From: Bacteroidia bacterium
Lineage (GTDB): Bacteria; Bacteroidota; Bacteroidia; NS11-12g; UBA955
Assembly (NCBI GenBank): GCA_044377005.1
Contig: JBILJV010000001.1
Coordinates: 34,999 to 98,998 of the forward strand
Reading direction: 5' to 3'
DNA: 64,000 nt
Shown here: piece after piece, positions 21 to 52,307 of the stretch
Position numbering within the stretch: the first letter of the stretch is position 1
Layout: every line of letters begins with the position of its first letter
Notes under the pieces: model-generated
What the model was told of the DNA's origin: nothing
What the model saw: the letters and a program-made list of their open reading frames with translations, nothing else
Databases searched by the model: none
Program-made: the position numbers and the translations under genes

Positions 21-2228
21 TTGTATATAAATTGGCAAACAACACAAGTTAAACAAGAACTTTTTTCACAGGAAAAATGGAAAGAGGGCGATGGTTTTAA
101 TTCGATGCTTAAGCTTAATCTAAAGGGTGAAGTAATTAGTTATAAGTCCAATTTTAACATAACCTTTGATCAATTATTTAAAGATGGTCTTTCCAGAAAG
201 CAATTTTTGGAATGGTGTCATGCCATTGCTAGTCAAAGTTTTACAGATGACTTGGTGTTGCCCTATCGCAATGATAATTATGCATACATTGGTTTTTCAC
301 TAATATACAAATCTGTCGAAGATGAGATTTTATATGTGAGGGTTTTTAATAAGAAGTATGATTTAAATGATGTTGATTTGGTAACCAATCAAAATTTCAG
401 TAGAATTTTTGACAATATTCCGATGGATGTTATTATGTGGAATAATAATCAGGAATATATTTACATCAACAAAAATGCCATTAAAAGCGATGAAATTAGA
501 AACTGGTTGATAGGGAAAACAGATTTAGATTATTGCATATACCGAAATAAACCTTTGGATATTGCTTATAACAGAAGAAATGCATTCAATGAAGCTTTGT
601 TTACTAAGAAAAGGCAAATCGTTGAAGAAAAATTCGAAGTTGAAGGGAGTTATAAAATACATGTTAGAATTATCGATCCTATATTATCCAAAGAAAACGA
701 AATTCTAAATATCATAGGATACGGGATTGATATATCGGCATTGCGTAATTCTCAGGATTCTATAAGTCATTTAAATTATACTTTGAATGAGGCGAGAGAA
801 GGTGTTGCACTCTTAAATCCAAAAGGAGAATATTACTATTTGAACCATTCCCATATCTCAATGTTTGGTTTTGAAAGTCAAGATGAGTTATTAGGGAAAA
901 CTTGGCATATATTGTACGAGCAAGATGAAATAGACCGTTTAAATAATGAGATTTTTCCTGTTTTGGCCAAAGAGAAGATTTGGATTGGAGAAACAAGAGC
1001 CAAAAACAAACAAGGCGAATATGTTTATCAAGAAGTGACACTTACCATTGCACCCAATAATGACATGGTTTGTTTTTGTAGAGATATTAATCAAAGAAAA
1101 AGAGAGCAAATTGAGCTTGAAAAATTAGCAACAGTAGCTAAAAACACCTCAAACTTGGTATTAATCTGTGACAAAAATTACAAAATCGAATTTGTAAACA
1201 AATCATTTGAAGACATCACTGGTTTTAAGTTGTTAGAATGTAAAGGGAAGGATTTTTATTTCAACTTTAATTTCAATGAAGACAATGGCCAAATTATAGG
1301 AGATGTTGGAAGTATCGACCAAAACAGTGAATCAAGTTTGAACTTCCAAGTGCTACAAAGTACGAAATATTCTCAAACATTTTGGAGCGAAATTAGTGTA
1401 AATCCTATTGTTGGGTATGATGGAGAAATGTCACATTTAATCTTTGTGGAACGTGATATTACACCTCAAAAACAAGTAGAAAACTCAATTAAAGAATCAT
1501 TGGCAAAGGAAAAAGAGTTGAGTGAAATGAAGTCGCAATTCGTGAATTTGGCATCACATGAAATAAGAACACCTTTGGCTAGTATTTCATCAAGTGCTGA
1601 AATGATAAAATTGTATTTTGAAAATAAAAATGTAGATTCAGTAAAAGTGCACAATCACTTGAATAAAATCTCGATTCAAATTACTCGTTTGTCTGAGTTG
1701 CTGTCTAATCTTCTGTTTGTTGGTAAAATGGATGCTGCAAGTTTGGATTTGAATTTAAAATTAATAGATATTAAATCGTTTATTACAGAATTAGTCGACG
1801 ATTATAATGTGAGTATTGATGAAAAAAAACAAAGGTATTTGGAATTTAAAATGGTTTCAACTCTAGCAGAGCCTGTGTTTTTAAATATTGATAAGGTGCT
1901 AATCACTCATGCTATTATAAATATCATTAATAATGCATTTAAGTATTCCGAAGGAAAGCAAAATCCACTCTTGGTTTTAAAAATAAGTTCCTCAGAAGTA
2001 GAGGTTTGTGTTACTGATTATGGAATAGGAATCCCAATTAAAGAGCAGAAAAATTTATTCAAATCATTTTGGAGGGCGAGTAATACTATTAATATTCCTG
2101 GAATAGGACTGGGATTGGTGTTTGTTAAAAAAATAATTGAAGTATCTGGAGGTTATGTGTCTATTGACAGTGAAGTAAATAAATATACTTCCATCAAAGT
2201 TTGTTTGCCTGTTAAAAACATACAATAG
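21..2228 (+). CDS. Cytoplasmic multi-PAS sensor histidine kinase (TTG start)
   Basis: HisKA H-box SHEIRTPLASI; C-terminal HATPase_c with N, G1 (DYGIGI) and G2 (GIGLGL) motifs; several PAS-like blocks; no TM segment; in-frame stop at 9-11 places the start inside the window. Confidence 0.8.
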   Translation: MYINWQTTQVKQELFSQEKWKEGDGFNSMLKLNLKGEVISYKSNFNITFDQLFKDGLSRKQFLEWCHAIASQSFTDDLVLPYRNDNYAYIGFSLIYKSVEDEILYVRVFNKKYDLNDVDLVTNQNFSRIFDNIPMDVIMWNNNQEYIYINKNAIKSDEIRNWLIGKTDLDYCIYRNKPLDIAYNRRNAFNEALFTKKRQIVEEKFEVEGSYKIHVRIIDPILSKENEILNIIGYGIDISALRNSQDSISHLNYTLNEAREGVALLNPKGEYYYLNHSHISMFGFESQDELLGKTWHILYEQDEIDRLNNEIFPVLAKEKIWIGETRAKNKQGEYVYQEVTLTIAPNNDMVCFCRDINQRKREQIELEKLATVAKNTSNLVLICDKNYKIEFVNKSFEDITGFKLLECKGKDFYFNFNFNEDNGQIIGDVGSIDQNSESSLNFQVLQSTKYSQTFWSEISVNPIVGYDGEMSHLIFVERDITPQKQVENSIKESLAKEKELSEMKSQFVNLASHEIRTPLASISSSAEMIKLYFENKNVDSVKVHNHLNKISIQITRLSELLSNLLFVGKMDAASLDLNLKLIDIKSFITELVDDYNVSIDEKKQRYLEFKMVSTLAEPVFLNIDKVLITHAIINIINNAFKYSEGKQNPLLVLKISSSEVEVCVTDYGIGIPIKEQKNLFKSFWRASNTINIPGIGLGLVFVKKIIEVSGGYVSIDSEVNKYTSIKVCLPVKNIQ

Positions 2229-2315
2229 TCATACTCAATAATATTATTTTAATAATTGATGTTAAAAAATTTGCATTAAATTAATTTAATGATTTTCTTT
2301 GTAAAAAAAAATAAT

Positions 2316-2981
2316 ATGCAAACCAAATCTGTTTTACTTGTAGAAGACGAAAAAATCCTGAGAGAAAATATCGCTGAATTTTTAGAAGTCAAAGGATATG
2401 AAGTCGTTCAATGTCAAAATGGTAACGAAGCTTTGGGGCAATTATTAGAACATGATTTTGATATTATTGTTTCTGATATTGTTATGTCTGATTTAACTGG
2501 CACTCAGTTGTTAGAAAAAATCAGAACAATGAAGGTGAATAAAGAAGCGCCATTTATCTTTATTTCAGCTAAAACAGATCCTAAAGACATTAGAGAATCT
2601 ATGAATATTGGAGCAGATGATTATTTGCCTAAGCCTTTTTTATTCCACGACTTAGAACGTTCAATCCAAAAACGTTTAGAGCGTTTTGCAGAGGTAAAAT
2701 CATCCTCTCAAAGTGAAGATGGAATGTATAATAAAGTAAATGAACTTTCACCTGCAGAAGTCAATGCTCTTTCATTGTTAAATACGTTAACTAAGACTCA
2801 AAAAATAGTATTTGAAAAAATATCTAAAGGGATTTCTTCAAATGAAATTGCAGAACAATTGGATATTTCAGTTAGAACCGTTTTGAATCACAGGCACAAT
2901 ATTGCAAAGAAATTACAATTACAAGGTACATACTCAACCATGCGTTTAGGTCTTAAATTGAAGTCTAATACAATCTCTTAG
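2316..2981 (+). CDS. Response regulator, REC domain plus LuxR/GerE-type HTH
   Basis: N-terminal receiver (LLVEDE...IVSDIVMSDLTG...FISAKTD); C-terminal HTH resembling the LuxR family (LTKTQKIVFEKISKGISSNEIAEQLDISVRTVLNHRHNIAKKL); adjacent to the kinase; start taken at the internal ATG (MQTKS) rather than the track start 2289. Confidence 0.8.
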   Translation: MQTKSVLLVEDEKILRENIAEFLEVKGYEVVQCQNGNEALGQLLEHDFDIIVSDIVMSDLTGTQLLEKIRTMKVNKEAPFIFISAKTDPKDIRESMNIGADDYLPKPFLFHDLERSIQKRLERFAEVKSSSQSEDGMYNKVNELSPAEVNALSLLNTLTKTQKIVFEKISKGISSNEIAEQLDISVRTVLNHRHNIAKKLQLQGTYSTMRLGLKLKSNTIS

Positions 2982-2983
2982 TA

Positions 2984-3595
2984 TTAAAACAAAAGTGTAA
3001 CATAACAAGTTGCAAAACCAGTTCCATAGCCAACGTATAGTTGAGAAGGAGTGTGTGCATTAAGCTTTAAGCGGGCCCATCCAGTTGCACCACTTACTAA
3101 TAATAAACTAACTAGAAACATCGTAAAAACATTGAGGTGGCTGTTCATTGTTAAATAAAAATACAAAGCAATCAATCCACCACAACCAATGGCATGGGAA
3201 CTTATGGTCCATTTATAATTAATAAGGATATTGATTGCAATACACAGAATAGTGCCAATTAAAAAGCGAACAGGAAGACCTGAAAAGTCATTTTGATATA
3301 ATTGGTAGGCTGTATAAGTTAAAAGCAGCATTATCACTGAATAAGGAACCATTCGCTGTTTGGCATTAGACAAAATGTAGTTGGAAATAAGGTTAAATCG
3401 TTTTAATAAATACATACTTAACAATGGCATTAGCAATGTGTTAATAGCAATGTAAATGGAAAGTGTATAAAATTGTTCTTCGTAAAATTTACTGAAGTAA
3501 TAAGGGTGAAATTTCAGAATACTGAATAACCCCAAATTTAGTAAAATTAAAGGATGGGTAACAACTGAAACAAACTTAGCTGTATTTCTTAACAT
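2984..3595 (-). CDS. Polytopic membrane protein, possibly PAP2-like phosphatase fold
   Basis: About 6 predicted TM helices; weak PAP2-like motifs (SSHAIGCGG; ARLKLNAHTPSQ...GYGTG); family uncertain. Confidence 0.4.
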   Translation of the reverse strand: MLRNTAKFVSVVTHPLILLNLGLFSILKFHPYYFSKFYEEQFYTLSIYIAINTLLMPLLSMYLLKRFNLISNYILSNAKQRMVPYSVIMLLLTYTAYQLYQNDFSGLPVRFLIGTILCIAINILINYKWTISSHAIGCGGLIALYFYLTMNSHLNVFTMFLVSLLLVSGATGWARLKLNAHTPSQLYVGYGTGFATCYVTLLF

Positions 3596-3601
3596 GGATG
3601 T

Positions 3602-4618
3602 TTATTTTAGTTGTAATTCAGGGACTTGTCGTGGGGAATATTTCGCTGCAACTGTTGCAATTTCTTTGATATGCTCAGGGGTTGTACCGCAGCAACCACC
3701 TATCACATTAACCCACCCTTCTTTCATAAATTGCTCAACCACCTTGGCCATCGCTTGGGGAGATTCATCATACTCGCCAAATTCATTCGGTAATCCTGCA
3801 TTAGGATAAGCAGTTGTATATATCCAAGAAACTTTACTTATCTCACTAATGTGTGGCATCATGTCTTTGGCTCCCAAAGCACAATTTAAGCCGATACTTA
3901 ATAAATTAGCATGAGAAAGTGAATTCCAAAAAGCCTCAGGCGTTTGTCCACTCAGTGTTCTGCCACTGGCATCTGTTATGGTCCCAGAAACCATAACAGG
4001 AATATCCAATTGTCGTTCTTCTTTTATGGTATTTATGGCAAATAAAGCAGCCTTAGCATTCAATGTATCAAAGATTGTTTCAACTAATAATAAGTCAACC
4101 CCACCATCTATTAAAGCGATAATTTGTTCACTGTAAGCTTCACACAAATCGGAGAAAGTAACAGCCCTATAACCAGGTTGGTTTACATCAGGGCTAAGTG
4201 AAGCAGTTCTGTTGGTTGGTCCAATGGCTCCTGCCACGAATCTTGGTTTTTCAGGGTTACTTAATGTGTATTCATTGGCGATTTTTTTAGCAATTTTAGC
4301 CGCTTCTAAATTGATTTCCCGCACCAATTCAGTCATGTTGTAATCTGCCATTGAGATAGATTGCGCATTGAATGTATTGGTTTCAATGATATCTGCACCA
4401 GCCTCTAAAAATTGACCATGAATTTCGGAGATAATATGTGCTTGGGTTAAAACAAGCAAATCATTGTTACCTTTTACCAATTGTTCAATGTTTTTGAAAC
4501 GTTCACCACGGTACTGTTCTTCGCTCAAATTATATTTTTGAATCATAGTACCCATAGCACCATCAATAATCATGATGCGTTTACTTAAAATATCTTTAAT
4601 CGTTGTTTCTGTGCTCAT
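3602..4618 (-). CDS. Homocysteine S-methyltransferase domain protein (stand-alone MetH N-terminal Hcy-binding module)
   Basis: MIIDGAMGTMIQ start; Zn-binding Cys pattern including the C-terminal GGCCGTTPEHI motif typical of the Hcy-binding TIM barrel; 338 aa, with no pterin or B12 domains. Confidence 0.75.
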   Translation of the reverse strand: MSTETTIKDILSKRIMIIDGAMGTMIQKYNLSEEQYRGERFKNIEQLVKGNNDLLVLTQAHIISEIHGQFLEAGADIIETNTFNAQSISMADYNMTELVREINLEAAKIAKKIANEYTLSNPEKPRFVAGAIGPTNRTASLSPDVNQPGYRAVTFSDLCEAYSEQIIALIDGGVDLLLVETIFDTLNAKAALFAINTIKEERQLDIPVMVSGTITDASGRTLSGQTPEAFWNSLSHANLLSIGLNCALGAKDMMPHISEISKVSWIYTTAYPNAGLPNEFGEYDESPQAMAKVVEQFMKEGWVNVIGGCCGTTPEHIKEIATVAAKYSPRQVPELQLK

Positions 4619-4629
4619 TGTATTTATTT

Positions 4630-4668
4630 GTTTGTAAAAACCCCTCTTTCTGTGAATTAAATTAACAA
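4630..4668 (-). terminator. Rho-independent terminator downstream of lpd
   Basis: CCCCTCTTT...AAAGAGGGG stem (9 bp) followed by a T-run on the minus strand. Confidence 0.55.
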
Positions 4669-4718
4669 AAAGAGGGGTTTTCGAAAAAGTATTTAACTCA
4701 ATTGAATGAGTTAATGTT

Positions 4719-6104
4719 TTATAAGTGAATACATTCGTTGTAAGCTTGCGCTACAGCTTCCATGATAGCTTCACTCATCGTTGGATGAGGATGGATAGAT
4801 TTAATGATTTCATGTCCTGTAGTTTCTAAGTTACGAGCTACTACTGCTTCTGCAATCATGTCAGTAACACCTTCGCCTACCATGTGACAACCCAACCATT
4901 CGCCATATTTAGCATCAAAAATAACTTTAACAAATCCGTCTTTGTGTCCACTAGCACTTGCTTTACCACTAGCAGAGAATGGGAATTTACCCACTTTAAT
5001 GTCATAACCTTTTTCTTTGGCTTGTGCTTCGGTATATCCTACTGATGCTACTTCAGGATGGGTGTAAGTGCAACCTGGAATATTATTATAATTGATAGCA
5101 TGTGGGTGTAAACCAGCAATGGCTTCAACACAAGTAATGCCTTCAGCACTTGCTACGTGAGCTAATGCAGGGCCATGAACAATGTCGCCAATAGCATAAA
5201 CACCTGCAATATTTGTTTTATAGAAATCATCAACTAAAACTTTGCCTTTGTCTGTTTTTACTCCAGCTGCTTCTAATCCTAAGTTTTCTAAGTTTGTAAC
5301 AATACCAGCTGCACTTAATACAATATCACACTCAATAGTTTTCATGCCTTCAGGGGTTTTAATACTTACTTTGCAACCTTTTCCAGCCGTATCAACAGAT
5401 TCAACTGAACTGTTTACTAAAATGTCAACACCATTCTTTTTGTATGTTTTTTCCATCGCTTTACTTACCTCTTCGTCTTCAACAGGTAATATGCGTGGCA
5501 TAAATTCAACCACAGTTACATTGGTTCCCATAGTATTGTAGAAGTAAGCAAACTCCATTCCGATAGCACCTGAACCTATAACGACCATTGTTTTTGGTTG
5601 CACTGGTAGAACCATTGCTTCTCTGTATCCAATCACTTTTTTACCATCTTGTTTAATGTTTGGTAATTCTCTACTTCTAGCACCAGTTGCTAAAATAATA
5701 TGGTCTGCTTCGTGTATTTCTTTTTTACCATCTAAATCAACTTCCACTTTTTTAGCACCTGCTAATTTGCCATAACCTTTAATGACAGTGATTTTGTTTT
5801 TCTTCATTAAAAACTCAATCCCTTTGCTCATGTTGTTAGCAACACCACGGCTTCTTTTTACCACTGCTTCAAAATCATGGTTGAATTCTTTTACAGTAAT
5901 ACCGTAATCTGCACTGTGTTTTAAATATTCATATACTTGAGCTGATTTTAATAATGCTTTAGTAGGAATACAACCCCAATTCAAGCAAACGCCTCCTAAT
6001 TCAGCTTTTTCAACTACAGCAACTGTTTTGCCTAATTGTGATGCGCGAATGGCAGCAACATAACCACCTGGTCCGCTACCTATAACAATGATGTCAAATT
6101 TCAT
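4719..6104 (-). CDS. lpdA: Dihydrolipoyl dehydrogenase (E3)
   Basis: FAD-binding GSGPGGYVAA; redox disulfide GGVCLNWGCIPTK; NAD-binding GSGAIGMEFA; C-terminal HPT interface motif. Confidence 0.92.
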   Translation of the reverse strand: MKFDIIVIGSGPGGYVAAIRASQLGKTVAVVEKAELGGVCLNWGCIPTKALLKSAQVYEYLKHSADYGITVKEFNHDFEAVVKRSRGVANNMSKGIEFLMKKNKITVIKGYGKLAGAKKVEVDLDGKKEIHEADHIILATGARSRELPNIKQDGKKVIGYREAMVLPVQPKTMVVIGSGAIGMEFAYFYNTMGTNVTVVEFMPRILPVEDEEVSKAMEKTYKKNGVDILVNSSVESVDTAGKGCKVSIKTPEGMKTIECDIVLSAAGIVTNLENLGLEAAGVKTDKGKVLVDDFYKTNIAGVYAIGDIVHGPALAHVASAEGITCVEAIAGLHPHAINYNNIPGCTYTHPEVASVGYTEAQAKEKGYDIKVGKFPFSASGKASASGHKDGFVKVIFDAKYGEWLGCHMVGEGVTDMIAEAVVARNLETTGHEIIKSIHPHPTMSEAIMEAVAQAYNECIHL

Positions 6105-7756: not shown

Positions 7757-7800
7757 TTTTATTGTTTAAAAACTAACAAAAAAAATAAATTTACCAAAAC

Positions 7801-8403
7801 TTAATGAATTCTATCACCTCTCAACTCCATTGATTTCATAATATCAGCTTCTGCAATCAAATACTCGTTCCAGCGGTTCATTACATAGTCAGATGGCAAA
7901 ATGTTTTTAGCTAAATTTAAAAAAGTGTGGTAATGCCCGGCTTCACTTTCCATAAATTCTCTGTAAAACACTTTGAGTTCTTCATCCTGAATATGCAAAC
8001 TTAGCAATCTAAAACGTTCGCAACTTCTGGCTTCTATCATCGCACTAATTAAAAGTTTTTCTACCGCTACTTGATCTGGTTTTAAACCGCGTTTTTCAAT
8101 GGCAAATAATTTGTTGACATAATCGTCTTTGCGAGGCATTTCAAAGGGTAGATTCCTTTTTTTGAGCTCTTTTAAGACTCGTCTAAAATGTCCCCATTCT
8201 TCAGCAACTATGGGTGTAACTTCCTCAACGATTTGAGGATAATGGGCGTATTTTACAATCAAAGAAATACCAGTAGTTGCCGCTTTTTGTTCACACCAAG
8301 CGTGGTCACTGAGTATAAATCCAATATTCATTTCGGCGATATTGACCCATCGTGGGTCAGTTGCCATAATAAGTCCTAACTTAGTTTTTTGATGTTCTTG
8401 CAT
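7801..8403 (-). CDS. miaE: tRNA-(ms2io6A)-hydroxylase, MiaE-like ferritin-fold diiron protein
   Basis: About 200 aa; ExxH diiron motifs (EQKAATTG...EEWGHF; MIEARSCERF; ESEAGHYHTF); overall similarity to the MiaE family. Confidence 0.7.
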   Translation of the reverse strand: MQEHQKTKLGLIMATDPRWVNIAEMNIGFILSDHAWCEQKAATTGISLIVKYAHYPQIVEEVTPIVAEEWGHFRRVLKELKKRNLPFEMPRKDDYVNKLFAIEKRGLKPDQVAVEKLLISAMIEARSCERFRLLSLHIQDEELKVFYREFMESEAGHYHTFLNLAKNILPSDYVMNRWNEYLIAEADIMKSMELRGDRIH

Positions 8404-12345: not shown

Positions 12346-15162
12346 ATGCCAAAAGACAATTCCATAAAGTCAGTTTTAATAATCGGTAGCGGTCCCATCA
12401 TCATCGGTCAAGCATGTGAGTTTGACTATTCGGGGAGTCAGGCTGCTCGTTCACTCAGAGAAGAGGGAATTGAGGTGTCGCTTATCAATAGCAATCCAGC
12501 AACGATTATGACTGACAAAGTAACTGCAGACCATGTTTATTTGTGGCCATTAACTTGTCAAAGTATCGAAAAAATACTACAAGAGCGTCAAATAGATGCT
12601 GTATTGCCAACTATGGGTGGTCAAACGGCATTGAATTTATGTATCGAAGCAGAAGATTTAGGGATTTGGGAAAAATACAATGTAAGAATAATAGGAGTAG
12701 ATACAGCTGCTATTCAAAAAACAGAGAATAGAGAGTTGTTCAGACGATTAATGATAGATATTGGTGTGGGTGTAGCTACTTCAGAAACAGCAAATTCATA
12801 CCTTGAAGGTAAAGAAATTGCCCAACGCATTGGATATCCTTTGGTAATTCGTCCATCTTTTACACTAGGTGGTACAGGCGGTGGATTTGTCAACAACAAA
12901 AGCGAATTAGATGAAAAATTAAGAATCGGATTAGAAGCCTCTCCTACACACGAAGTGCTTGTTGAACAAGCCGTTTTAGGTTGGAAAGAATATGAATTAG
13001 AGTTATTGAGAGATAATAAAAATGACATCGCGGTAATCTGTACCATTGAAAATTTAGACCCTATGGGAATTCACACTGGAGACAGCATAACTATTGCTCC
13101 TGCTATGACTTTGAGCGATACATGTTACCAAAACATGCGTAATATGGCATTTAAAATGATGCGTAGTATTGGCAATTTTGCGGGTGGTTGTAACGTGCAA
13201 TTTGCTGTTAATCCAGAGAATGAAGATATTATTGCAATAGAGATTAACCCAAGGGTGTCGCGTTCATCAGCCTTGGCTAGTAAAGCCACAGGTTACCCAA
13301 TTGCAAAAATTGCTGCCAAATTGGCCATAGGCTACAATTTAGATGAGTTAAAAAATCCAGTAACCAAAACAACTTCTGCATTTTTCGAACCAGCAATCGA
13401 CTATGTCATTATAAAAATACCAAGATGGAATTTTGATAAATTTAAAGGTGCTGACAAATCTTTAGGACTGCAAATGAAATCAGTAGGTGAGGTAATGGCA
13501 ATAGGAAGAAGTTTTCAGGAAGCCTTACAAAAAGCTTGTCAATCTTTAGAGATTAGAAAGCATGGTTTGGGTGCTGATGGCACTGGTTCTAGAAATTTAG
13601 AAGAAATTGTTCATAGTTTGGAGTTTCCAAGTTGGGACCGTTTATTCCATTTAAAAGACGCTTTAGAAATGGGGGTGCCTATTTCTTCGGTTCAAAAATT
13701 AACGAGAATAGACCGATGGTATTTGGAGCAAATTGCTGATTTGGTAAAAACTGAAAAAGAAATCAGAAAGTTTACTTTAGACACCTTGCCAGAATCATTA
13801 ATAAAAACTGCTAAACAAAAAGGATACAGTGATTATCAAATTGCTTTTTTACTTAAAAATTGCAATGAAGATGAGGTTTATGAAAAACGTAAAGCAATGG
13901 GTATTCGCAGAACCTATAAAATGGTAGATACTTGTGCAGCTGAATTTCCCTCACCAACCAATTATTTTTACTCTTGTTTCGAGACAGAGAATGAAAGTGT
14001 GAGATCAGACAAAAAGAAAATAGTTGTATTAGGAAGTGGACCTAACCGTATAGGTCAGGGGATAGAATTTGACTACAGTTGTGTTCACGGCTTATTGGCT
14101 GCCAAAGAAACAGGTTTCGAAGCTATTATGGTTAATTGCAATCCAGAAACGGTTTCTACCGATTTTGACATGGCGAACAAATTGTATTTTGAACCAGTTT
14201 ATTGGGAACATTTGTGGGAAATAATCGAACACGAACAGCCTGAAGGTGTTATAGTGCAATTAGGTGGACAAACGGCGCTAAAATTAGCAGAAAAGTTACA
14301 CGAAAGAGGTATAAAAATTATTGGCACTTCTTTCCCTGATATGGACATGAGTGAAGATCGTGGATTGTTCAGTGACTTACTTAAAGAATTAAATATTCCT
14401 TACCCAAAATATGGTGTTTCAGAAACCGCAGATGAGGCTGTAAAAATAGCACAAGAGGTTGGTTATCCAGTTTTGGTTCGTCCAAGTTATGTATTGGGTG
14501 GGCAGGGTATGAAAATTGTTATAAATGATGAAGAGTTAGAAGCTGCAGTTATTGGGTTATTAGGTGACTTGCCTGGTAATAGAGTGTTAATTGATCATTT
14601 TTTAGACAGAGCTGAAGAGGCGGAATGTGATGTCATTTGTGATGGTGAAGATTACCATGTTATTGGCATGATGGAACACATAGAGCCGGCGGGCATTCAC
14701 AGTGGAGACAGTAGTGCCGTATTACCTCCGTTTAGTTTGAGCGAAAATGTAAAACAAAAAATGGAAGAGTATAGTAAAAAACTAGCTTTTTCAATGAATA
14801 TCAGAGGATTGTTAAACATCCAATTCGCAATTAAAAATGAAGAGGTTTATGTTATTGAAGCTAATCCAAGAGCAAGTAGAACGGTGCCATTTATTTGTAA
14901 AGCATACGATGTTCCTTATATAAATATTGCAACTAAAATAATGTTGGGGACTCATAAATTAAAAGATTTTAACATTCAACCAAAACAAGAAGGGTATGCT
15001 ATTAAATTACCTGTATTTTCATTCAATAAATTCCCTAACGTTAATAGAGAATTAGGGCCTGAAATGAAAAGTACGGGAGAAGCTATATTGTTTGTAAAGG
15101 ACACTAAAGATCCTGAATTTAGAGAAATCTACAGCAAGAAAAGTATGTACTTGAGTAGATAG
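12346..15162 (+). CDS. carB: Carbamoyl-phosphate synthase large subunit
   Basis: Two ATP-grasp halves with near-identical start motifs (VLIIGSGPIIIGQACEFDYSGSQA and VVLGSGPNRIGQGIEFDYSCVH); oligomerisation domain between them. Confidence 0.93.
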   Translation: MPKDNSIKSVLIIGSGPIIIGQACEFDYSGSQAARSLREEGIEVSLINSNPATIMTDKVTADHVYLWPLTCQSIEKILQERQIDAVLPTMGGQTALNLCIEAEDLGIWEKYNVRIIGVDTAAIQKTENRELFRRLMIDIGVGVATSETANSYLEGKEIAQRIGYPLVIRPSFTLGGTGGGFVNNKSELDEKLRIGLEASPTHEVLVEQAVLGWKEYELELLRDNKNDIAVICTIENLDPMGIHTGDSITIAPAMTLSDTCYQNMRNMAFKMMRSIGNFAGGCNVQFAVNPENEDIIAIEINPRVSRSSALASKATGYPIAKIAAKLAIGYNLDELKNPVTKTTSAFFEPAIDYVIIKIPRWNFDKFKGADKSLGLQMKSVGEVMAIGRSFQEALQKACQSLEIRKHGLGADGTGSRNLEEIVHSLEFPSWDRLFHLKDALEMGVPISSVQKLTRIDRWYLEQIADLVKTEKEIRKFTLDTLPESLIKTAKQKGYSDYQIAFLLKNCNEDEVYEKRKAMGIRRTYKMVDTCAAEFPSPTNYFYSCFETENESVRSDKKKIVVLGSGPNRIGQGIEFDYSCVHGLLAAKETGFEAIMVNCNPETVSTDFDMANKLYFEPVYWEHLWEIIEHEQPEGVIVQLGGQTALKLAEKLHERGIKIIGTSFPDMDMSEDRGLFSDLLKELNIPYPKYGVSETADEAVKIAQEVGYPVLVRPSYVLGGQGMKIVINDEELEAAVIGLLGDLPGNRVLIDHFLDRAEEAECDVICDGEDYHVIGMMEHIEPAGIHSGDSSAVLPPFSLSENVKQKMEEYSKKLAFSMNIRGLLNIQFAIKNEEVYVIEANPRASRTVPFICKAYDVPYINIATKIMLGTHKLKDFNIQPKQEGYAIKLPVFSFNKFPNVNRELGPEMKSTGEAILFVKDTKDPEFREIYSKKSMYLSR

Positions 15163-20434: not shown

Positions 20435-20908
20435 ATGAAAGTTGAGTCGAGTCATATCATAAAAAAGCAATTATTGAACATGGAACCGGTGGCACTTACC
20501 GAGTTGTGTCTTCGACTAATGAAATATAAAAAAGAGAACAAAGAATTGGTTTCATATTACTTGTTCAACAAAGGCGACGAGGCTGAATATGTGGAAATGG
20601 TGAATAATGAATTAACAGAACTGTTTGAAATGATTCCTAGAAATGGGAAATACAAAGAAGTAAAGCAAATTAGGAAAATACTAAGAATAGCGAACAAACA
20701 AATCAAGTATTCGGGATTGGCCACCACACAAGTGGAAGTTTTAATGCATTTTACCAAATTACTTAAACCCAAAGTAAAGTCATTGCAAATTTTGTCATTG
20801 GATAATATGTACATGCAACAACTTAAAAAAATAAACATAGCCATGGGCAAGTTGCACGAGGATTTGCAGTATGACTATTTAAAACAGTTGAGTGAATTGG
20901 AGGGGTAG
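20435..20908 (+). CDS. Hypothetical cytoplasmic protein
   Basis: Three-nucleotide gap after the upstream gene (operon); no recognisable motif. Confidence 0.45.
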   Translation: MKVESSHIIKKQLLNMEPVALTELCLRLMKYKKENKELVSYYLFNKGDEAEYVEMVNNELTELFEMIPRNGKYKEVKQIRKILRIANKQIKYSGLATTQVEVLMHFTKLLKPKVKSLQILSLDNMYMQQLKKINIAMGKLHEDLQYDYLKQLSELEG

Positions 20909-21027
20909 TGGGGGTTTTATTGAACTACGGAAACCTAATTAAAGGAATTTATTTTATCAAAACCTAATCCGATGATCAGCTTAAGTTTGTAATACAACAA
21001 ATTTTAACGCCTAAATTTCAATCAAAC

Positions 21028-21115
21028 ACCTTACTACCCACTCTTATCATATTGCTGCCACAATGTATAGCTAGCAAGTAATCACTAACTCATGCTCATG
21101 GAAACGATTTGGAAG
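21028..21115. repeat. Left direct repeat: decayed duplicate of the yggS 3' end (att-like)
   Basis: About 90% identical over ~88 bp to 23096..23183, with 8 mismatches and 1 indel; includes the stop-codon position; out of frame, so non-coding. Confidence 0.8.
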
Positions 21116-21226
21116 TTGTTTTTAAAAATTAAAGCCAAAGTCAGCAAACACAGGGAAGCTTGATATTTCTGGAGCGTTGATGGGGTTATAAACTTAAATC
21201 TACTTTTTTTAATAAGATTAATTAAG

Positions 21227-21257
21227 AAACAATGCAAGTTATTTACTTGCATTGTTT
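21227..21257. terminator. Perfect palindromic hairpin (13-bp stem), terminator-like
   Basis: AAACAATGCAAGT-tattt-ACTTGCATTGTTT followed by TTCTT; downstream of the minus-strand small ORF. Confidence 0.4.
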
Positions 21258-21302
21258 TCTTGATTGGATGATATTTACTTTTATCAAAATTATTATATAT
21301 AA

Positions 21303-21593
21303 TTAGGAAAATATTATAGCTCTCAATATAATAATAACAAATATTAACATTGAATTTAAAACAAATGTTCTCCTTTGCTTTTTATTTAAATTCCCCTTTA
21401 ACCTATTTCTATTAAACAAAACATAGAGAAACAATAGCAAAACAAGATAAATCCATAAATTGGGGACTCCCAGATAATTATTAAATATTGGCATTAATAC
21501 TACTATATCTAAAATGATTACTCTAATAATAAATTCATTTTTAGAAACTTCTTCAATAATTGGGTTATTCTCTTTTTCGTTTGATCTATTCAT
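21303..21593 (-). CDS. Small multi-TM membrane protein (immunity-protein-like)
   Basis: 96 aa; 2-3 hydrophobic helices; basic inter-helix loop (NRNRLKGNLNKKQRR); lies directly downstream of the Cys-rich lipoprotein gene. Confidence 0.45.
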   Translation of the reverse strand: MNRSNEKENNPIIEEVSKNEFIIRVIILDIVVLMPIFNNYLGVPNLWIYLVLLLFLYVLFNRNRLKGNLNKKQRRTFVLNSMLIFVIIILRAIIFS

Positions 21594-21638
21594 TTGTGTG
21601 GTAATTTTAATTAGAAATTTAAAAAAAAATATTCAAAC

Positions 21639-22349
21639 TCAATTACAAAAAGTATTTATACCACTTGAAGTTAGAAATTCATTTCTTGTTGGATTTAGCA
21701 ATATACTTCTAAAAGCACTAGGACAATTACCATAATGAGTATCAAGTGCATCATTATAACAAACTCCATGTGCAGCAACACATAATCCAATGCCGATAAA
21801 ACCACCCCCTAATGTAAAACCGGCTGTTATAGCAGCACCAACAATACAAACAGCATAATATCTATCACAAGATTTAATTGCATTTCCTGCGGCTTTACAT
21901 GCTTGGGAAACATTAGCTTTGGAAACGTCAGATCTTCCTAAAAGTCCACTAAGATGATTGCCAATAATAATATAATCTTCATCAGTTAAACTTCCAATAC
22001 TCATGTTTTGCAAATTTTGAATACTTGAAGTATACGACGAGATAAATTCATCAAATTCTGGGTTTGATTGAAGTGTAGCATATATTTCATTTGAAGTTAA
22101 CCCACTTGATAACATATTTCTCAATTGACAAAATTGTTCATTACTTAAATTATCAAAAGCAATTGATATACTTTTAACATTTAATGCAATATTATAATGT
22201 AAATTTTGCTCAACCAACAAAGATTCATTAAATAAGTTATTTCCCTTTTGAGAAACCTCCACGATTTTATCATTTTTTGTGGTTTTTTCTTTATTACATG
22301 CATTAAACATAAGAATAGTAAATACCATTAAAACCAATTTTATTAACAT
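21639..22349 (-). CDS. Lipoprotein with C-terminal Cys-rich glycine-zipper hydrophobic domain (bacteriocin/toxin-like)
   Basis: Lipobox ILMFNAC; C-terminus GAAITAGFTLGGGFIGIGLCVAAHGVCY with 7-8 Cys; start could alternatively be the upstream ATG at 22412. Confidence 0.45.
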   Translation of the reverse strand: MLIKLVLMVFTILMFNACNKEKTTKNDKIVEVSQKGNNLFNESLLVEQNLHYNIALNVKSISIAFDNLSNEQFCQLRNMLSSGLTSNEIYATLQSNPEFDEFISSYTSSIQNLQNMSIGSLTDEDYIIIGNHLSGLLGRSDVSKANVSQACKAAGNAIKSCDRYYAVCIVGAAITAGFTLGGGFIGIGLCVAAHGVCYNDALDTHYGNCPSAFRSILLNPTRNEFLTSSGINTFCN

Positions 22350-22654
22350 AGTTTTATGGTTTATTAGACTTAATAGGACTCTTAAATGATTTTTTAAAAT
22401 GAATTTTTTCATGATTTTTTATATTTATATTTTTTGCTTACTCTTGCCTTTTTCAGCATTCAGGGTATCGGGGTCGGGTGAGAGGCCGTCTCTTTTGTTA
22501 TTCAACATTACAAATGAATATCTATTTTTTTTGATTTAAAAGGAATAAATTATTCCATTTTTACTCCATTTTTGGAATAAAGTGGAATAATAATGTCACA
22601 ATAATGCTATATTTTTTAATTCAACTTGTAATTATAATTTTCTGAAATTGAATA

Positions 22655-23024
22655 ATGAAAACGATTGGATTCAACCTGATATAAATAAATATTAAAGAAA
22701 GGCAAACCAAAATTGAACATATTGCTAAATCAATAGGCGTATCAAATGGTGAGTTATCAAAAATATTAAATGGAGAAAGGCTTAATTACTACAAACACAT
22801 TCTTGCTATAGCCGATTATTTCAACCTTTCTTTTTTGGAATTAGTAAAAAATGACCTTCCCAATTATTTAAAAAACTTCTCCATCCGAAAACGCTGAGGT
22901 GTTTTTACTCAACAAATACATTGCTCAATGTAATGAAACGATTAGTTCAAAAGATGCCACTTTAAACACCCTTGACAACTTGGTTAAATCTGAACGTGAA
23001 GCCAAAGAAAGCTACAAACGCTAA
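22655..23024 (+). pseudogene. Decayed XRE-family HTH regulator (in-frame TAA at codon 10 plus a downstream frameshift)
   Basis: MKTIGFNLI*INIKERQTKIEHIAKSIGVSNGELSKILNGER matches the Cro/C1 HTH signature but is interrupted by a stop at 22682-22684; the C-terminal tail continues in another frame. Confidence 0.45.
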
Positions 23025-23095
23025 TACGAAAACTGTAAAGAAAAATTAAAACTGGCAGAAGGTAAAAGAATTTGATTCTATCTGTCTTAATCCCC

Positions 23096-23183
23096 TCACT
23101 CAAACACCTTACTGCCCACTCTTATCATATTGCTGCCACATTGTATGGCTAGCAAGTAATCACCACTCATGCCCATGGAAATG
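23096..23183. repeat. Right direct repeat: the authentic yggS 3' end
   Basis: Partner of 21028..21115; contiguous with the intact yggS reading frame. Confidence 0.8.
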
Positions 23184-23743
23184 GTTTGGAAGTCGGGGAA
23201 CAGATTTAATGCTTTTATGTTGTCGAAATAGTGGCGAAGTTGTTTGAATTCCTTTTCGACTTGCGCTTTATTGTCGGTGTTGCTTGCCATACCCATCAGT
23301 CCCATGATGTTGATGTTTTTAAATTCACTTAATTGAGGGTGTTTGATGAGTGTCATTAATTCTTCTTCTGATAAGCCAAATTTGGTTTCTTCTGAGGCAA
23401 TATAAACTTGTAATAAGCAATTGATGACCCTGTTATTTTTGAGTCCTTGTTTGTTTATTTCTTCCAATAGTTTAAAACTGTCCACACTTTGAATCAAATG
23501 AATAAACGGCGCAATGTATTTAACCTTGTTGGTTTGTAAATGACCTATTAAATGCCATTTGATATTATCGGGTAAGGCTTCTTTTCTTTCCAACAAAGCT
23601 TGAACTCTGTTTTCAGCAAGGTGTAACATGCCCGCCTCATACACTTGTTTAATTTCTTCGATTGTTCTGTATTTGGAAACAACAACCAAATCAACATTTT
23701 GGCCTATTTCTTGTTTAATTCTTAATATGTTTTCAGCAACCAT
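23096..23743 (-). CDS. yggS: YggS-family PLP-binding protein (PLP homeostasis)
   Basis: N-terminal LVVVSKYRTIEEI with the PLP-lysine context; about 215 aa, a single alanine-racemase-N-like barrel. Confidence 0.85.
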   Translation of the reverse strand: MVAENILRIKQEIGQNVDLVVVSKYRTIEEIKQVYEAGMLHLAENRVQALLERKEALPDNIKWHLIGHLQTNKVKYIAPFIHLIQSVDSFKLLEEINKQGLKNNRVINCLLQVYIASEETKFGLSEEELMTLIKHPQLSEFKNINIMGLMGMASNTDNKAQVEKEFKQLRHYFDNIKALNLFPDFQTISMGMSGDYLLAIQCGSNMIRVGSKVFE

Positions 23744-46451: not shown

Positions 46452-47858
46452 ATGAAAATGATAAATAAGTTAAGTGTTCAAATAGGTTTTATCGCCCTAT
46501 TTTTAATGGTTCAATTAGGGTGTAAACGCGAATTATCAGAGGATGCTGTATTGCCTCAATTTAGCAAAAATCCATATGTTTTTACCGATAACTTTATAGG
46601 ATTAGGTTCTGATTTTTATTTCCCTTTTGCAGATGCTAAGCCAGATGTTTTTTCAGTTGACTTAAAAGAGGGTTTCGAAAGCAATGCTTCAGTTAGAATT
46701 GATGTGCCCAATGAGACTGATCCAGGAGGAGCTTATGCTGGGGCAATTTTTAGAATAGATGGTGCTGGTAGAAATTTAAGTAATTATGATGCAATAACTT
46801 TTTATGTTAAAGCCTCTACTGGAACAAAATTAGGTGATGTTGGATTTGGGATTGATTACATTCAAGACAAAAATAAAGTGTCTATTCAAAATGTAAATGT
46901 TGGAACCAATTGGACCAAAGTTATTATTCCTATTCCCGATCCTACTCAATTGGTTAATGAAAGAGGTGTTTTTTGGTTTGCAGCTGGTACACAAGAGACT
47001 AATGGGGCAGGATATGTACTTTGGTTTGATGAAATTAAATTTGAGAAATTAGGGACTGTGGGAAAGCCAACTTCAAGGATTTTAAATGGCGAAGTTAGCA
47101 CGGTAAAGTCCTTTGTTGGAGCCTCAATAACGGTTACAGGTTTGAATCATATTTTTAATCTAACAAATGGTCAAGATGTTATTGTGAATTCTACTTCTGC
47201 ATATTATAACTTTTCAAGTTCAAATACTTCTGTGGCATCAGTTAATGACTCAGGAATTGTGAAAATATTAGCTATAGGTACAGCAGAAATAACGGCTAGA
47301 GTCAATGGGATATTAGCGAAAGGTAAGTTGATTATTGAGTCAAAAGGTAATTTACCTGGCGCACCTATCCCAACTAGGTCAGCAATCGATGTTAAATCTA
47401 TTTTTAGTGATGCTTATGTCAATGCAACTGAAAGTAATTTTACACCAGGTTTTGGCGGCTCTACTACAGTTTTTGACCAATTGACAACCAGTAGCGGTAA
47501 GATAATACAATATAATAATAATAATTATACAGGAATAATCTTTGGGAATACAGTCGATGCATCTTCTCTTGGTTTTTTACATATTGATGCATACGTAGAA
47601 AATGCATCATCTGTAATTGGAATTCAAATTAGAGATATTGGGGCAAATAAAACAATTGAGACTGACGTGTTTACAGGGAATCCAATAGGAGATGATAAGG
47701 ATAAAAGAATGAATTTGTCTGGATTTGAAGCAGGAGTATGGAAGTCTTTTGATATTCCTTTAAATGCAGGCATTCTGAATCAAAAAAATAATTTAGGTGC
47801 AATTATTTTAACCGGAGGTCCAAATTTTATGATAGACAATATCTATTTTTATAAATAA
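46452..47858 (+). CDS. Surface lipoprotein with CBM-like domain, Big_2 Ig-like domain and CBM-like domain (SGBP-like)
   Basis: Lipobox VQLGC; central Big_2 signature (SVASVNDSGIVKILAIGTAEITARV); C-terminal domain homologous to the repeats of the 38172 protein (AIDVKSIFSDAYVN...IDNIYFY). Confidence 0.65.
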   Translation: MKMINKLSVQIGFIALFLMVQLGCKRELSEDAVLPQFSKNPYVFTDNFIGLGSDFYFPFADAKPDVFSVDLKEGFESNASVRIDVPNETDPGGAYAGAIFRIDGAGRNLSNYDAITFYVKASTGTKLGDVGFGIDYIQDKNKVSIQNVNVGTNWTKVIIPIPDPTQLVNERGVFWFAAGTQETNGAGYVLWFDEIKFEKLGTVGKPTSRILNGEVSTVKSFVGASITVTGLNHIFNLTNGQDVIVNSTSAYYNFSSSNTSVASVNDSGIVKILAIGTAEITARVNGILAKGKLIIESKGNLPGAPIPTRSAIDVKSIFSDAYVNATESNFTPGFGGSTTVFDQLTTSSGKIIQYNNNNYTGIIFGNTVDASSLGFLHIDAYVENASSVIGIQIRDIGANKTIETDVFTGNPIGDDKDKRMNLSGFEAGVWKSFDIPLNAGILNQKNNLGAIILTGGPNFMIDNIYFYK

Positions 47859-48854: not shown

Positions 48855-51800
48855 ATGTCAGGTCAAAAACAAAATAAAAAAGCTACTTTGGTAGAGATAA
48901 AAAGATTGAAAATAGAAGGAGAAAACTTCTTTTGTATTTCAAATTATGATGAAATGCGTCCCTTTTTTATGAGTGTGGTTAGCGATTCGCACCATTGGAT
49001 GTTTATATCTAGCAATGGGGGAATTTCTGCTGGTCGCAAGAATGCCGAATATGCTTTGTTCCCCTATTATACTGCGGATAAAATTACGGAATCCTATGAT
49101 ATAACAGGCTCTAAATCTATTTTTCAAATTATTCAAAATGAAAAAATTCATGTTTGGGAACCCTTTTCAGAAAGGAATAATAGCTTGTTCAACGTTTCTA
49201 GAAATTTGTATAAAAATGCAATTGGGAATAAAATTATTTTCGAAGAAATAAATCACACTTTTGAACTTACATTCAGGTACGAATGGAACTCAAGTGATCA
49301 ATACGGTTTTGTTCGTAAATCTTCTCTAGCAAACAATGGCAATCAAGCCTTAACCGTTGCTATATTAGATGGAATACAAAATATTATGCCTGATGGTGTC
49401 GGTGCTGATTTGCAAAACTCAACGAGTATTTTGGTAGATGCTTATAAACGCAATGAACTTGAGATAGAATCAGGTATGGGTATCTATGCACTCAGTGCAA
49501 TAATAGTTGACAAGGCTGAACCAAGTGAAGCTCTAAAAGCAAATATTGCTTGGTCTATAGGTTTTGATAAACCCAAATTCTTGCTTTCTTCCCTTCAACT
49601 TAATGCCTTCAGAAACGGAGAGGATGTTGTTCAAGAAGAGGATATTAAGGCAGAAAAAGGGGCTTATTTTATTAATCAAAAAATAACCTTAGCCAGTGGC
49701 GAAAAGAAATCTTGGTTAATTGTAGCTGATGTTAACCAAAGTCAAGCAAATGTAGTCGAACTGACCAATGAAATTATTTCAAATAATGAACTAAAAAAGC
49801 AAATTGAAAATGATATAGAATTAGGCTCTAAGCGCTTAAAGGAACTGAATGCTTCCTCTGATGGAATTCAATTGTCAGATGATGTTTACAGAGATACTCG
49901 ACATTTTTCTAATACTCTTTTTAATATAATGAGAGGGGGTATTTTTGATTTTAACTATCAAATTGAAAAAAAAGACCTCGTCAGTTATCTTGAAAATGCC
50001 AATAAAGATGTTTATGAAATTCACAAGGACTTGTTGCATAGCTTGGATGAAGTTTTTAACGTTTTTCAATTGCAAGAAATATACAGCACAATTAATGACA
50101 ATAATTTTAAACGACTTTGTATAGAGTATTTGCCACTTAAGTTTAGCCGAAGACATGGAGACCCAAGTAGACCATGGAATAAATTTTCTATCAATACACG
50201 TAATGCGGATGATCATTCTAAGGTGTTGGATTATGAGGGGAATTGGAGAGATATTTTTCAGAATTGGGAAGCTTTGTCCATCTCTTATCCTGCATTTACC
50301 AAAGGGATGATTCATAAGTTTTTGAATGCAACAACATTCGAAGGCTATAATCCTTATAGGGTTACAAAGAGTGGATTTGATTGGGAAACCGTAGAGCCGG
50401 ATAATCCTTGGTCGTATATCGGTTATTGGGGTGATCATCAAATTGTTTATTTGCTCAAATTGTTGGAAATAAATGAGAAATACTATCCAGGCCAACTGAG
50501 TAGTCAATTCAGTGAAAACCTATTTGTGTATGCCAATGTTCCTTATAAAATTAAAAATTATCAGGCGATTTTAAAAAATGCGAAAGACACTATTCAATTT
50601 GATAAAAAGTTAGATGAAGAAATTAGAGAAAAACGAGTTTTAATTGGTTCAGATGCTGCATTGCTTTTTGCGCAAAATGATAAAATTTACAATGTCAATT
50701 TTATTGAAAAAATATTGGCCACAATTTTATCTAAACTTTCAAATTTTATTCCCGAAGGTGGTATTTGGATGAATACCCAAAGACCTGAATGGAACGATGC
50801 TAATAATGCTTTGGTTGGAAATGGAGTTTCTATGGTTACATTATATTACCTCAGAAGGTTCCTTGAATTCTTCGAAAAACTAATTGAACCAATAGATGAA
50901 GAGCGCGTAGAATTGTCGAATGAGTTAATCATTTTCTTTAAAAAAATTCATGCTACATTCGATGACAACTTAGCTTTGTTAGATTCAGGGATAAATGACA
51001 GTCAACGAAAAGCAATTCTTGATAGCTTAGGACAAGCAGGAAGCGATTACCGTGAACATATTTATAAACATGCTTTTTGGGGCGAAAAAAGAACTATATC
51101 ATACCGAAGACTTAAAAGCTTTGTTAAAGTAAGTCTTCAGTTTATTGAACATACCATTAAGGCTAATAAGCGTCATGATAATATGTATCATTCATACAAT
51201 TTAATGACACTGAATAGCAAAAACGAAATTTCAATCAACTATTTAAGTGAAATGCTTGAAGGTCAAGTTGCCGTTTTAAGCTCCGGATATTTGTCTCCTG
51301 AAAGTGCCCTTAAATTATTGGATAGTATGAAAAGTAGTGCCCTTTTTAGAGAAGATCAACAAAGCTATTTACTCTATCCTAATAAGCATCTTCCTAAGTT
51401 TTTAGATAAAAATAGAATTCCTATTGAATTAATCAAACAATCGCATCTTCTTTCACTTATGTTTAATGATGGAAATAAATCAATTATAGAGCAAGATTTA
51501 AAAGGGGAATTTCGATTCAATGGGAATTTTAAAAATTCAAATGACTTGAGTAATGCTATTGATTTATTAAGCCATTCTAAATATGCATCATTTCTTAAAA
51601 GTGAAAAGAAACAACTCTTAGAAATTTTCGAATCTGTATTTAATCACAAGTCATTTACTGGTCGCTCAGGCACTTTTTATGGATATGAAGGTTTAGGTTC
51701 TATTTATTGGCACATGGTTTCTAAACTGCAATTAGCAGTCCAAGAAATGTGTATTCAAGCAATAGAGTTACATGAAAGTACTGAACTTGTTGCAGGCTTG

Positions 51801-52307
51801 TTGAAGCATTATTACGAAATAAATGAAGGTGTTGGTGTGCATAAATCACCCACCATTTATGGGGCATTCCCAACCGATCCATACTCGCATACGCCAAGTA
51901 ACAAAGGAGCACAACAGCCTGGAATGACTGGTCAAGTAAAAGAGGATATTCTGAGTCGATTTGGTGAATTAGGTGTTTTTGTCTCGAAAGGTTGTTTGTT
52001 TTTTAACCCTTGCTTGTTGAGAAAAAATGAATTTATATCTCAAAATCGACAGTTTCATTATGTAACTCTTGACATGGAACACAAATCATTAATGCCTGAA
52101 ATTGGTTCCTTGTGTTTTACCTATTGCCAAATTCCTATTGTATATAGATTGTCAAATGATAATTATCTTGAAATTGAAAAAAGTGACGGCACTGTTTTAA
52201 GGAATAATTCATTGTATTTAAATGAAGAATTAAGTCAACAAATATTTAAAAGAACGGGTGCTATATCTATAATTACAGTTTATATCAATGAATCTATTTT
52301 GAAATAA
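48855..52307 (+). CDS. Large cytoplasmic protein, candidate glycoside phosphorylase/hydrolase (GH94-clan, e.g. GH149/GH161-like)
   Basis: 1150 aa with no signal peptide, embedded in a glycoside-hydrolase operon next to an MFS importer; family assignment is inferential and no motif was verified. Confidence 0.35.
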   Translation: MSGQKQNKKATLVEIKRLKIEGENFFCISNYDEMRPFFMSVVSDSHHWMFISSNGGISAGRKNAEYALFPYYTADKITESYDITGSKSIFQIIQNEKIHVWEPFSERNNSLFNVSRNLYKNAIGNKIIFEEINHTFELTFRYEWNSSDQYGFVRKSSLANNGNQALTVAILDGIQNIMPDGVGADLQNSTSILVDAYKRNELEIESGMGIYALSAIIVDKAEPSEALKANIAWSIGFDKPKFLLSSLQLNAFRNGEDVVQEEDIKAEKGAYFINQKITLASGEKKSWLIVADVNQSQANVVELTNEIISNNELKKQIENDIELGSKRLKELNASSDGIQLSDDVYRDTRHFSNTLFNIMRGGIFDFNYQIEKKDLVSYLENANKDVYEIHKDLLHSLDEVFNVFQLQEIYSTINDNNFKRLCIEYLPLKFSRRHGDPSRPWNKFSINTRNADDHSKVLDYEGNWRDIFQNWEALSISYPAFTKGMIHKFLNATTFEGYNPYRVTKSGFDWETVEPDNPWSYIGYWGDHQIVYLLKLLEINEKYYPGQLSSQFSENLFVYANVPYKIKNYQAILKNAKDTIQFDKKLDEEIREKRVLIGSDAALLFAQNDKIYNVNFIEKILATILSKLSNFIPEGGIWMNTQRPEWNDANNALVGNGVSMVTLYYLRRFLEFFEKLIEPIDEERVELSNELIIFFKKIHATFDDNLALLDSGINDSQRKAILDSLGQAGSDYREHIYKHAFWGEKRTISYRRLKSFVKVSLQFIEHTIKANKRHDNMYHSYNLMTLNSKNEISINYLSEMLEGQVAVLSSGYLSPESALKLLDSMKSSALFREDQQSYLLYPNKHLPKFLDKNRIPIELIKQSHLLSLMFNDGNKSIIEQDLKGEFRFNGNFKNSNDLSNAIDLLSHSKYASFLKSEKKQLLEIFESVFNHKSFTGRSGTFYGYEGLGSIYWHMVSKLQLAVQEMCIQAIELHESTELVAGLLKHYYEINEGVGVHKSPTIYGAFPTDPYSHTPSNKGAQQPGMTGQVKEDILSRFGELGVFVSKGCLFFNPCLLRKNEFISQNRQFHYVTLDMEHKSLMPEIGSLCFTYCQIPIVYRLSNDNYLEIEKSDGTVLRNNSLYLNEELSQQIFKRTGAISIITVYINESILK

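Follow-up and report, generated by a model that had tools for sequence, protein, structure and literature searches.

We analysed the yggS locus in a 64,000-nucleotide (nt) stretch of DNA from a Bacteroidia bacterium (assembly GCA_044377005.1, contig JBILJV010000001.1, positions 34,999 to 98,998), the whole of which is called the window here. The window contains two copies of the yggS 3' end, and these enclose a broken XRE-family regulator gene and a small cargo. The original prediction took this arrangement for the footprint of a site-specific integrative element that had targeted the 3' end of yggS and had since lost its integrase. Our comparison with relatives showed an insertion that was a copy of a chromosomal operon. 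The features of the locus are listed below; aa means amino acids, L numbers denote loci from other assemblies, and the home operon is the XRE operon at its usual chromosomal locus.

20909-21017, no strand: native spacer from orf157 to the original yggS end; homologous to the empty site, contains two AAACCTAAT motifs and is unusually diverged in the window lineage
21018-21116, minus: left repeat, a dead and displaced yggS 3' end including the stop codon; a 1-nt insertion breaks the frame
21122-21196, minus: remnant of the operon's 230-aa terminal gene, last ~20 codons, ...NPINAPEISSFPVFADFGFNF*; the gene is intact in L001
21227-21257, no strand: perfect 13-bp palindrome with a 5-nt loop (21227-21239 / 21245-21257)
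21303-21593, minus: 96-aa multi-pass membrane protein, sharing 33-35% identity with the 92-aa membrane protein in the home operon
21639-22412, minus: 257-aa lipoprotein with a lipobox, 9 Cys and a Cys/Gly-rich hydrophobic C-terminal helix pair
22437-22497, minus: GC-rich conserved leader of ~60 nt, 5' of the first cargo gene
22549-22591, no strand: inverted repeat ATTATTCCA...TGGAATAAT in the intergenic region between the XRE gene and the cargo
22648-23078, plus: XRE-family regulator pseudogene in three frames (two frameshifts), with an in-frame stop at 23022-23024
23066-23095, no strand: spacer separating the stop codons of XRE and yggS; bar a 9-nt insertion, similar to the native spacer downstream of yggS in L003 and L066
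23096-23193, minus: right repeat, the working yggS 3' end (last 33 codons and stop)
23096-23743, minus: yggS, intact, encoding a 215-aa pyridoxal phosphate-binding YggS-family protein (Ala_racemase_N; TIGR00044 at 179.5 bits, cut-off 106)

The duplicated yggS end and the site in relatives

The direct repeat was 98/99 nt long. It was composed of two blocks separated by a 1-nt indel, namely 21018-21085 against 23096-23163 (68 nt, 94% identity) and 21088-21116 against 23165-23193 (29 nt, 90% identity). BLAST aligned the left and right copies over 99 nt at 90.9% identity with 8 mismatches and 1 gap, the same counts that had been predicted at ~90%. The duplication itself was thus real. However, its predicted length of ~88 nt was too short, and the predicted left start at 21028 (21028..21115) was wrong: the left copy begins at 21018, and the two predicted intervals were 10 nt out of register. 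The predicted 2.07-kb insertion corresponded to the repeat period of 2078 nt, and the DNA between the copies measured about 1.98 kb. The right copy still translated. Translation of the left copy gave TTSKSFP*A*VSDYLLAIHCGSNMIRVGSKVFD*, with the reading frame broken by the indel. The left copy adjoined native-type spacer, and the working yggS end adjoined island DNA. Frameshifted, displaced and next to the native spacer, the left copy was the decaying relic that had been proposed.

We confirmed that the repeat was a genuine feature of this locus. Its 39-nt core had exactly two occurrences in the window, the expectation from 100 shuffles being 0, so that it was not a repeat family, which would have been seen at many loci. 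No further copy of the repeat was present in the 64 kb. The same 3.4 kb was recovered from four independent metagenome assemblies at 99.9-100% identity, which showed that the structure was not an assembly artefact, and a diverged form of it was present in L001. A chance match, a dispersed family or an artefact was refuted by these observations and has a negligible probability; the AT-rich background alone speaks for it. A metagenome scan with a 26-nt repeat core gave 0 matches, the pattern being too strict for relatives at 88-92% identity.

The site was then compared between relatives. YggS was scanned in one genome per species, which gave 50 loci, and with metagenomes 108 yggS loci were fetched. 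In L002 (YggS 93%), the order was yggS, a 118-nt spacer, orf157, a DUF218 gene and htpG, and the alignment was unbroken across the site. This locus had neither the island nor a second yggS end. With yggS directly before orf157, L002 showed that the site can be empty; it is an empty site, and the window DNA is an insertion. The comparison of yggS neighbourhoods that the original prediction had proposed therefore gave the expected empty site. L001 (YggS 97%) carried a 4.98-kb island between 112-nt repeats that were 89% identical. Its yggS-side junction was the same as in the window, and its left junction matched within a few nt. These results showed that the window island and the larger L001 island share one origin. 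In 102 scanned loci of the 108, a second yggS 3' end was found only in L001, the window being the sole other case. yggS was not a recurrent target of related elements in this sample.

A different insertion was observed in L003, L065 and L066 (YggS 93%). These carried, with no repeat, a gene for a 1610-aa secreted protein close to the same point, no more than about 30 nt from the position of the XRE islet. The yggS-orf157 spacer was thus seen in three states: empty (L002), with the XRE islet (window, L001) and with the 1610-aa gene (L003, L065, L066). These three states behind yggS identified the spacer as an insertion hot spot.

Several further observations concerned this spacer. A block of ~70 nt was conserved in clade A and clade B alike (window 20925-21000; L003 13632-13709; L066 ~14190-14290). 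The region 20864-21125, which covers the spacer and the relic, was 77-79% identical to L001, while neighbouring 150-nt windows were 95-99% identical, and all other genomes agreed with one another there. This divergence could reflect accelerated change or an imported divergent allele in the window lineage. Islands of the window type (L130-L133) and the L001 type came from JGI samples with neighbouring ids (3300042544, 3300042352, 3300042481), and the L001 record was ME2018 from Lake Mendota. This lake may be home to two sister populations that differ in their cargo at one site.

The XRE operon and the origin of the islet

The L001 island contained six genes. An intact gene for a 142-aa XRE protein stood opposite to two genes for Cys-rich secreted proteins, two for thioredoxin-like proteins and one for a 230-aa protein. 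One edge of the island lay 2 nt past the stop codon of the 230-aa gene, and the other lay in the last XRE codons. Since the edges fell at the ends of the operon, there was no room for a lost backbone, and the island was a copy of the operon. XRE homologues (85-97% identical) were found in at least 8 other assemblies at the home locus, between sprT and a 418-aa gene/crcB. The home operon was variable and included a lipoprotein, the 92-aa membrane protein, thioredoxin-like proteins, a 130-aa membrane protein and a redoxin. A 96%-identical match of the 230-aa protein of L001 closed this operon beside sprT. The 96-aa protein and the remnant of the 230-aa gene tied the window cargo to the home operon. 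Minimal or variant XRE operons occurred at two more loci (L055, L125). At these three other chromosomal positions, the operon had no flanking direct repeats and no adjacent integrase. We showed in this way that the islet was a copy of an ordinary chromosomal XRE operon family.

We next looked for the machinery of a mobile element. No integrase, recombinase or transposase domain was detected with Pfam in the 47 largest open reading frames (ORFs) of the window; the search for a cognate integrase, which had been suggested for the whole genome, was thus negative for these ORFs of the 64 kb. Neither the window island nor the 4.98-kb island of L001 contained an integrase or transposase domain. The space in both islands was fully assigned, including about 480 nt of non-coding DNA in the window island, and none of the six L001 genes was a recombinase. 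There was no tRNA gene in the 64-kb window, no match to the island in plasmid, phage and viral-contig collections, and no inverted repeat between the island ends. A transposon or insertion sequence was rejected, as neither a transposase nor terminal inverted repeats between the island ends were present. Target duplications made by transposases are far shorter than ~100 nt. The two AAACCTAAT motifs outside the left repeat were present as predicted. However, 2 matches stood against a chance expectation of 2.15, and the motifs lay in native spacer that aligned with the empty site. We rejected them as attachment-arm sites. A role of these motifs or of the palindrome as attachment-site features was not supported. 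In the literature, no paper connecting yggS with an attachment site was found. Separately, a tyrosine integrase gene (Phage_int_SAM_5 and Phage_integrase) was observed in one clade-B assembly, at L051 16081-16432, about 8 kb from the home-locus XRE operon and past a GIY-YIG gene. No link between this gene and the operon was seen, and it was absent at that position in L053 and L059.

These results bear on the idea that a self-sufficient integrative element, equipped with a tyrosine integrase and an attachment site that contained the yggS 3' end, inserted here and later lost its integrase and backbone by deletion. The layout is the classic one of e14 at icd, with a duplicated gene end, an intact target and a displaced pseudo-end, and the foreign-looking alleles of the L001 relic described below would also fit. 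Nevertheless, the window island retained no integrase or remnant of one in its non-coding DNA, and the L001 island was filled by six unrelated genes. Both island ends were the natural ends of a chromosomal operon that was integrase-free wherever else it was found. In addition, about 105 other loci showed no repeated use of yggS as a target, and phages, plasmids and viral contigs gave no match. We regard such an element as unlikely. The insertion and the single-crossover layout of the original prediction were retained, but its lost integrase was unsupported, since none of the six genes of the L001 island is a recombinase and no space is left for a backbone.

The alleles of the relic gave information on how the DNA entered. 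The inner 70 nt of the L001 relic were identical to the yggS of the clade-B locus L066, including an L066-specific change of CAA to CAT. The own yggS of L001 had clade-A states at all six informative sites of these 70 nt. At two stop-proximal informative sites, the clade assignment of relic and gene was reversed. At four-fold sites, the window diverged from L001 by 0.124, and the clades diverged from each other by 0.37-0.44. With this divergence, the clade-B likeness of the L001 relic was hard to explain by a resident relic in decay, and it appeared very unlikely from these alleles that a freely decaying resident relic would come so close to clade B. The mosaic in L001 is what a single crossover with a foreign yggS fragment would be expected to leave. 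In the window, the relic had the own allele type of the window; it shared a window-private T with the working copy and carried 9-10 private changes. The XRE genes of the two islands formed a weakly supported group (3 informative sites against 1 and 0), and they grouped with the clade-A home copy, not with clade B. This suggested a single origin of the island near the point where the window and L001 lineages diverged.

We also considered a rearrangement in place, without a circular intermediate. By one route, a large tandem duplication would fuse the home operon at its XRE end with the yggS spacer, and a deletion would then leave the operon copy with about 100 nt of yggS. By another, a template switch during replication would copy the operon into the site. 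The island was indeed paralogous to a chromosomal operon of the same clade and had no mobile-element genes. Its right junction lay within the last XRE codons, beside a possible GTAAAA microhomology with the native spacer. However, this microhomology was weak; the permutation test, on a different segment, gave p about 0.02. Moreover, copies made in place would begin identical and of the resident type, while the L001 relic was identical to a clade-B yggS over 70 nt and differed from its own gene at every informative site there. The neutral divergence of about 0.4 between the clades made the retention of ancestral states implausible. Duplication with deletion or template switching is possible but fits the relic alleles poorly, and we consider it slightly less probable than an element with its own integrase.

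Based on the above results, we propose, with a probability of roughly 0.6, that the interval is a non-autonomous islet, a copy of the chromosomal operon with its repressor-like XRE regulator, inserted behind yggS by a single-crossover (Campbell-type) event. The incoming DNA would have carried about 105-130 nt of the yggS 3' end plus spacer. A single crossover at the yggS 3' end would then keep yggS intact through the incoming end, and the resident end would be pushed downstream as a dead relic, by ~2 kb in the window and about 5 kb in L001. We would place the event at, or a little before, the divergence of the window lineage from that of L001. Decay would have followed in the window lineage: the XRE gene was presumably inactivated, and about 3-4 kb including most of the 230-aa gene were lost or replaced. 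The window relic would have undergone probable gene conversion by the working copy and then ~10 private changes. The crossover could have been made by a tyrosine integrase in trans, as for cis-mobilizable elements (CIMEs), or by host homologous recombination on a looped-out circle. The 23066-23095 spacer may be a part of the duplicated segment, and it would supply the last XRE codons. The repeat could be extended by ~22 nt past the stop codon, where 20/22 positions match L003 if the 9-nt insertion is allowed, which is suggestive only.

Several points weigh against this single-crossover origin. The evidence for the reciprocal switch in L001 consists of two synonymous sites. For the window relic, which has the allele type of its own genome, one has to assume an extra step in which gene conversion by the working copy preceded the decay. 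No single simple donor fits, since the island XRE gene is of the clade-A type and the L001 yggS fragment appears to be of the clade-B or ancestral type. A circular form, a donor genome with the island and an integrase were not seen among the sequences compared. Finally, the island occurs in two lineages only, so that its history rests on few sequences.

The mixed alleles could also arise if the XRE operon were a recombinase-free mobile cassette that loops out between the repeats or with an integrase in trans, and re-enters yggS by single crossover. Each movement between related lineages would swap host alleles into the attachment segment. If true, this would explain how clade-B yggS alleles in the L001 relic came to stand with an operon of the resident clade. 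We hold this cassette to be improbable, about on a level with the in-place rearrangement.

Cargo, regulator and neighbouring genes

The cysteine-rich lipoprotein, the small transmembrane protein, the disrupted XRE gene and the 13-bp palindrome of the original prediction were all present in the window island. The XRE pseudogene was 92-94% identical in aa and 92.5% in DNA to the intact XRE gene of L001. The XRE end read ...GAATCAAATTCTTTTACC. The frame of the pseudogene also ended at a TAA at 22693, shortly past the first shift. HTH_26 matched the L001 protein with 25.2 bits (cut-off 22) and the repaired window pseudogene with 19.9 bits, below the cut-off. At the Pfam threshold, the L001 protein is thus predicted to have a Cro/C1-type helix-turn-helix (HTH) domain. 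TGGAA repeats in the region between the XRE gene and the cargo were kept in all related operons, and the inverted repeat at 22549-22591 is a likely candidate operator for the XRE protein.

The GC-rich leader was also found in L001 (~1500-1560), L055 (~7770-7860) and L125 (~2040-2100), in AT-rich surroundings. It was kept even in a 70%-diverged operon and was absent at the home loci; in L055, an additional perfect hairpin was inserted. Rfam gave nothing below E = 0.9 for the island and the leader. Folding of both strands of the leader gave z-scores near 0, with no covariation. A scan for promoter and terminator consensus sequences gave counts equal to those of shuffles and was uninformative.

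The 257-aa lipoprotein had one relative at 96% identity by word-index search and two at 25-28% by exhaustive HMMER search. These relatives had the same cysteine pattern and the Gly-rich hydrophobic stretch. P0056, the only relative for which the context was looked up, adjoined an HTH gene. By this likeness, the protein would belong to a small uncharacterised family adjacent to HTH genes. The AlphaFold2 model was all-helical, with a pLDDT (predicted local distance difference test) of about 80 at residues 70-230, and no fold matched it with E below 0.3. Subunits of alpha-pore-forming toxins were rejected as its fold, as matches with E 0.3-3 and TM (template modelling) scores below 0.25 are not evidence. 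The cargo gave no significant family in Pfam, NCBIfam, PADLOC and PHROGs, of which the last two returned only the generic HTH of the XRE protein. No bacteriocin, toxin or immunity domain was found in these databases. The comparison with bacteriocins that had been suggested thus yielded no recognisable bacteriocin or immunity family.

The palindrome, located at the deletion scar and 46 nt downstream of the 96-aa gene, is probably a terminator hairpin. The 257-aa and 96-aa pair is probably still expressed with no regulator and would end at this hairpin. The 230-aa gene ended in GGCTTTAATTTTTAAAA. In L001, the two Cys-rich secreted paralogues were about 178 aa long and 33% identical to each other, and the two thioredoxin-like paralogues were ~400 aa long with a C-terminal CxxC domain. 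The two pairs occupied 1602-5083 and had no family assignment. Their predicted features suggest a disulfide-handling system for secreted proteins.

Elsewhere in the window, 29706-56688 resembled a cluster for the utilisation of beta-glucan (laminarin-type). It encoded glycoside hydrolases (GH1, two GH16, GH30, GH17 and a GH2-like protein), a regulator with a Y_Y_Y domain and an MFS_2 transporter, and type IX secretion tails were present on several of its proteins. No Pfam match was obtained for two large ORFs (46452-47858 and 48855-52307).

Comparison with known systems

The islet was compared with three known systems. In E. coli K-12, the insertion of e14 at icd supplies a slightly different replacement 3' end, and the displaced end is the pseudogene fragment icdC (PMC13626634). 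The yggS islet is similar: it sits in the 3' end of a housekeeping gene, the gene is functional, and the displaced end lies at the far side. As expected for an element of the e14 type, the insert at yggS is missing from the site in a related genome (L002), and repeats of the 3' end accompany an intact gene. However, e14 is a prophage remnant of 15 kb that has a site-specific recombination system of its own and excises on SOS induction (PMC13626634). The insert at yggS is 2-5 kb, has no recombinase beside the repeat and is paralogous in content to a chromosomal operon. A duplicated gene end beside an island cannot, by itself, be read as a dead integrase element.

CIMEs are decayed integrative and conjugative elements (ICEs) or integrative and mobilizable elements (IMEs) which retain attL and attR but have no integration and transfer genes, and they are mobilised through the integrase of a related element (PMC5704250). 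Like a CIME, the islet lies between repeats at a target gene's end and has neither an integrase nor transfer genes of its own. Unlike a CIME, it had no ICE or IME remnant, no related element at the site, and no integrase was found. Descent from an ICE or IME was not indicated, as the content was a chromosomal operon that has no mobile-element genes elsewhere.

Flexible genomic islets occupy hot spots between core genes, usually with no duplicated end of a target gene. The yggS-orf157 spacer with its three states resembles them, and its cargo differs between co-occurring sister populations. It differs in that the duplication of ~100 nt at yggS marks the route by which the DNA entered. The locus is a clean, dated case in which an uncultured freshwater Bacteroidota lineage gained and then lost an accessory operon at a core-gene hot spot. 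The cargo is uncharacterised and comprises XRE-controlled Cys-rich secreted proteins, thioredoxin-like lipoproteins and a family of lipoproteins with a Cys/Gly-rich hydrophobic hairpin. If the operon moves as a cassette with no recombinase of its own, it would offer a simple route for the spread of operons between sister populations in the same lake. Taken together, the yggS islet is one more case of an already known type of structure and illustrates genome flux in a modest way.

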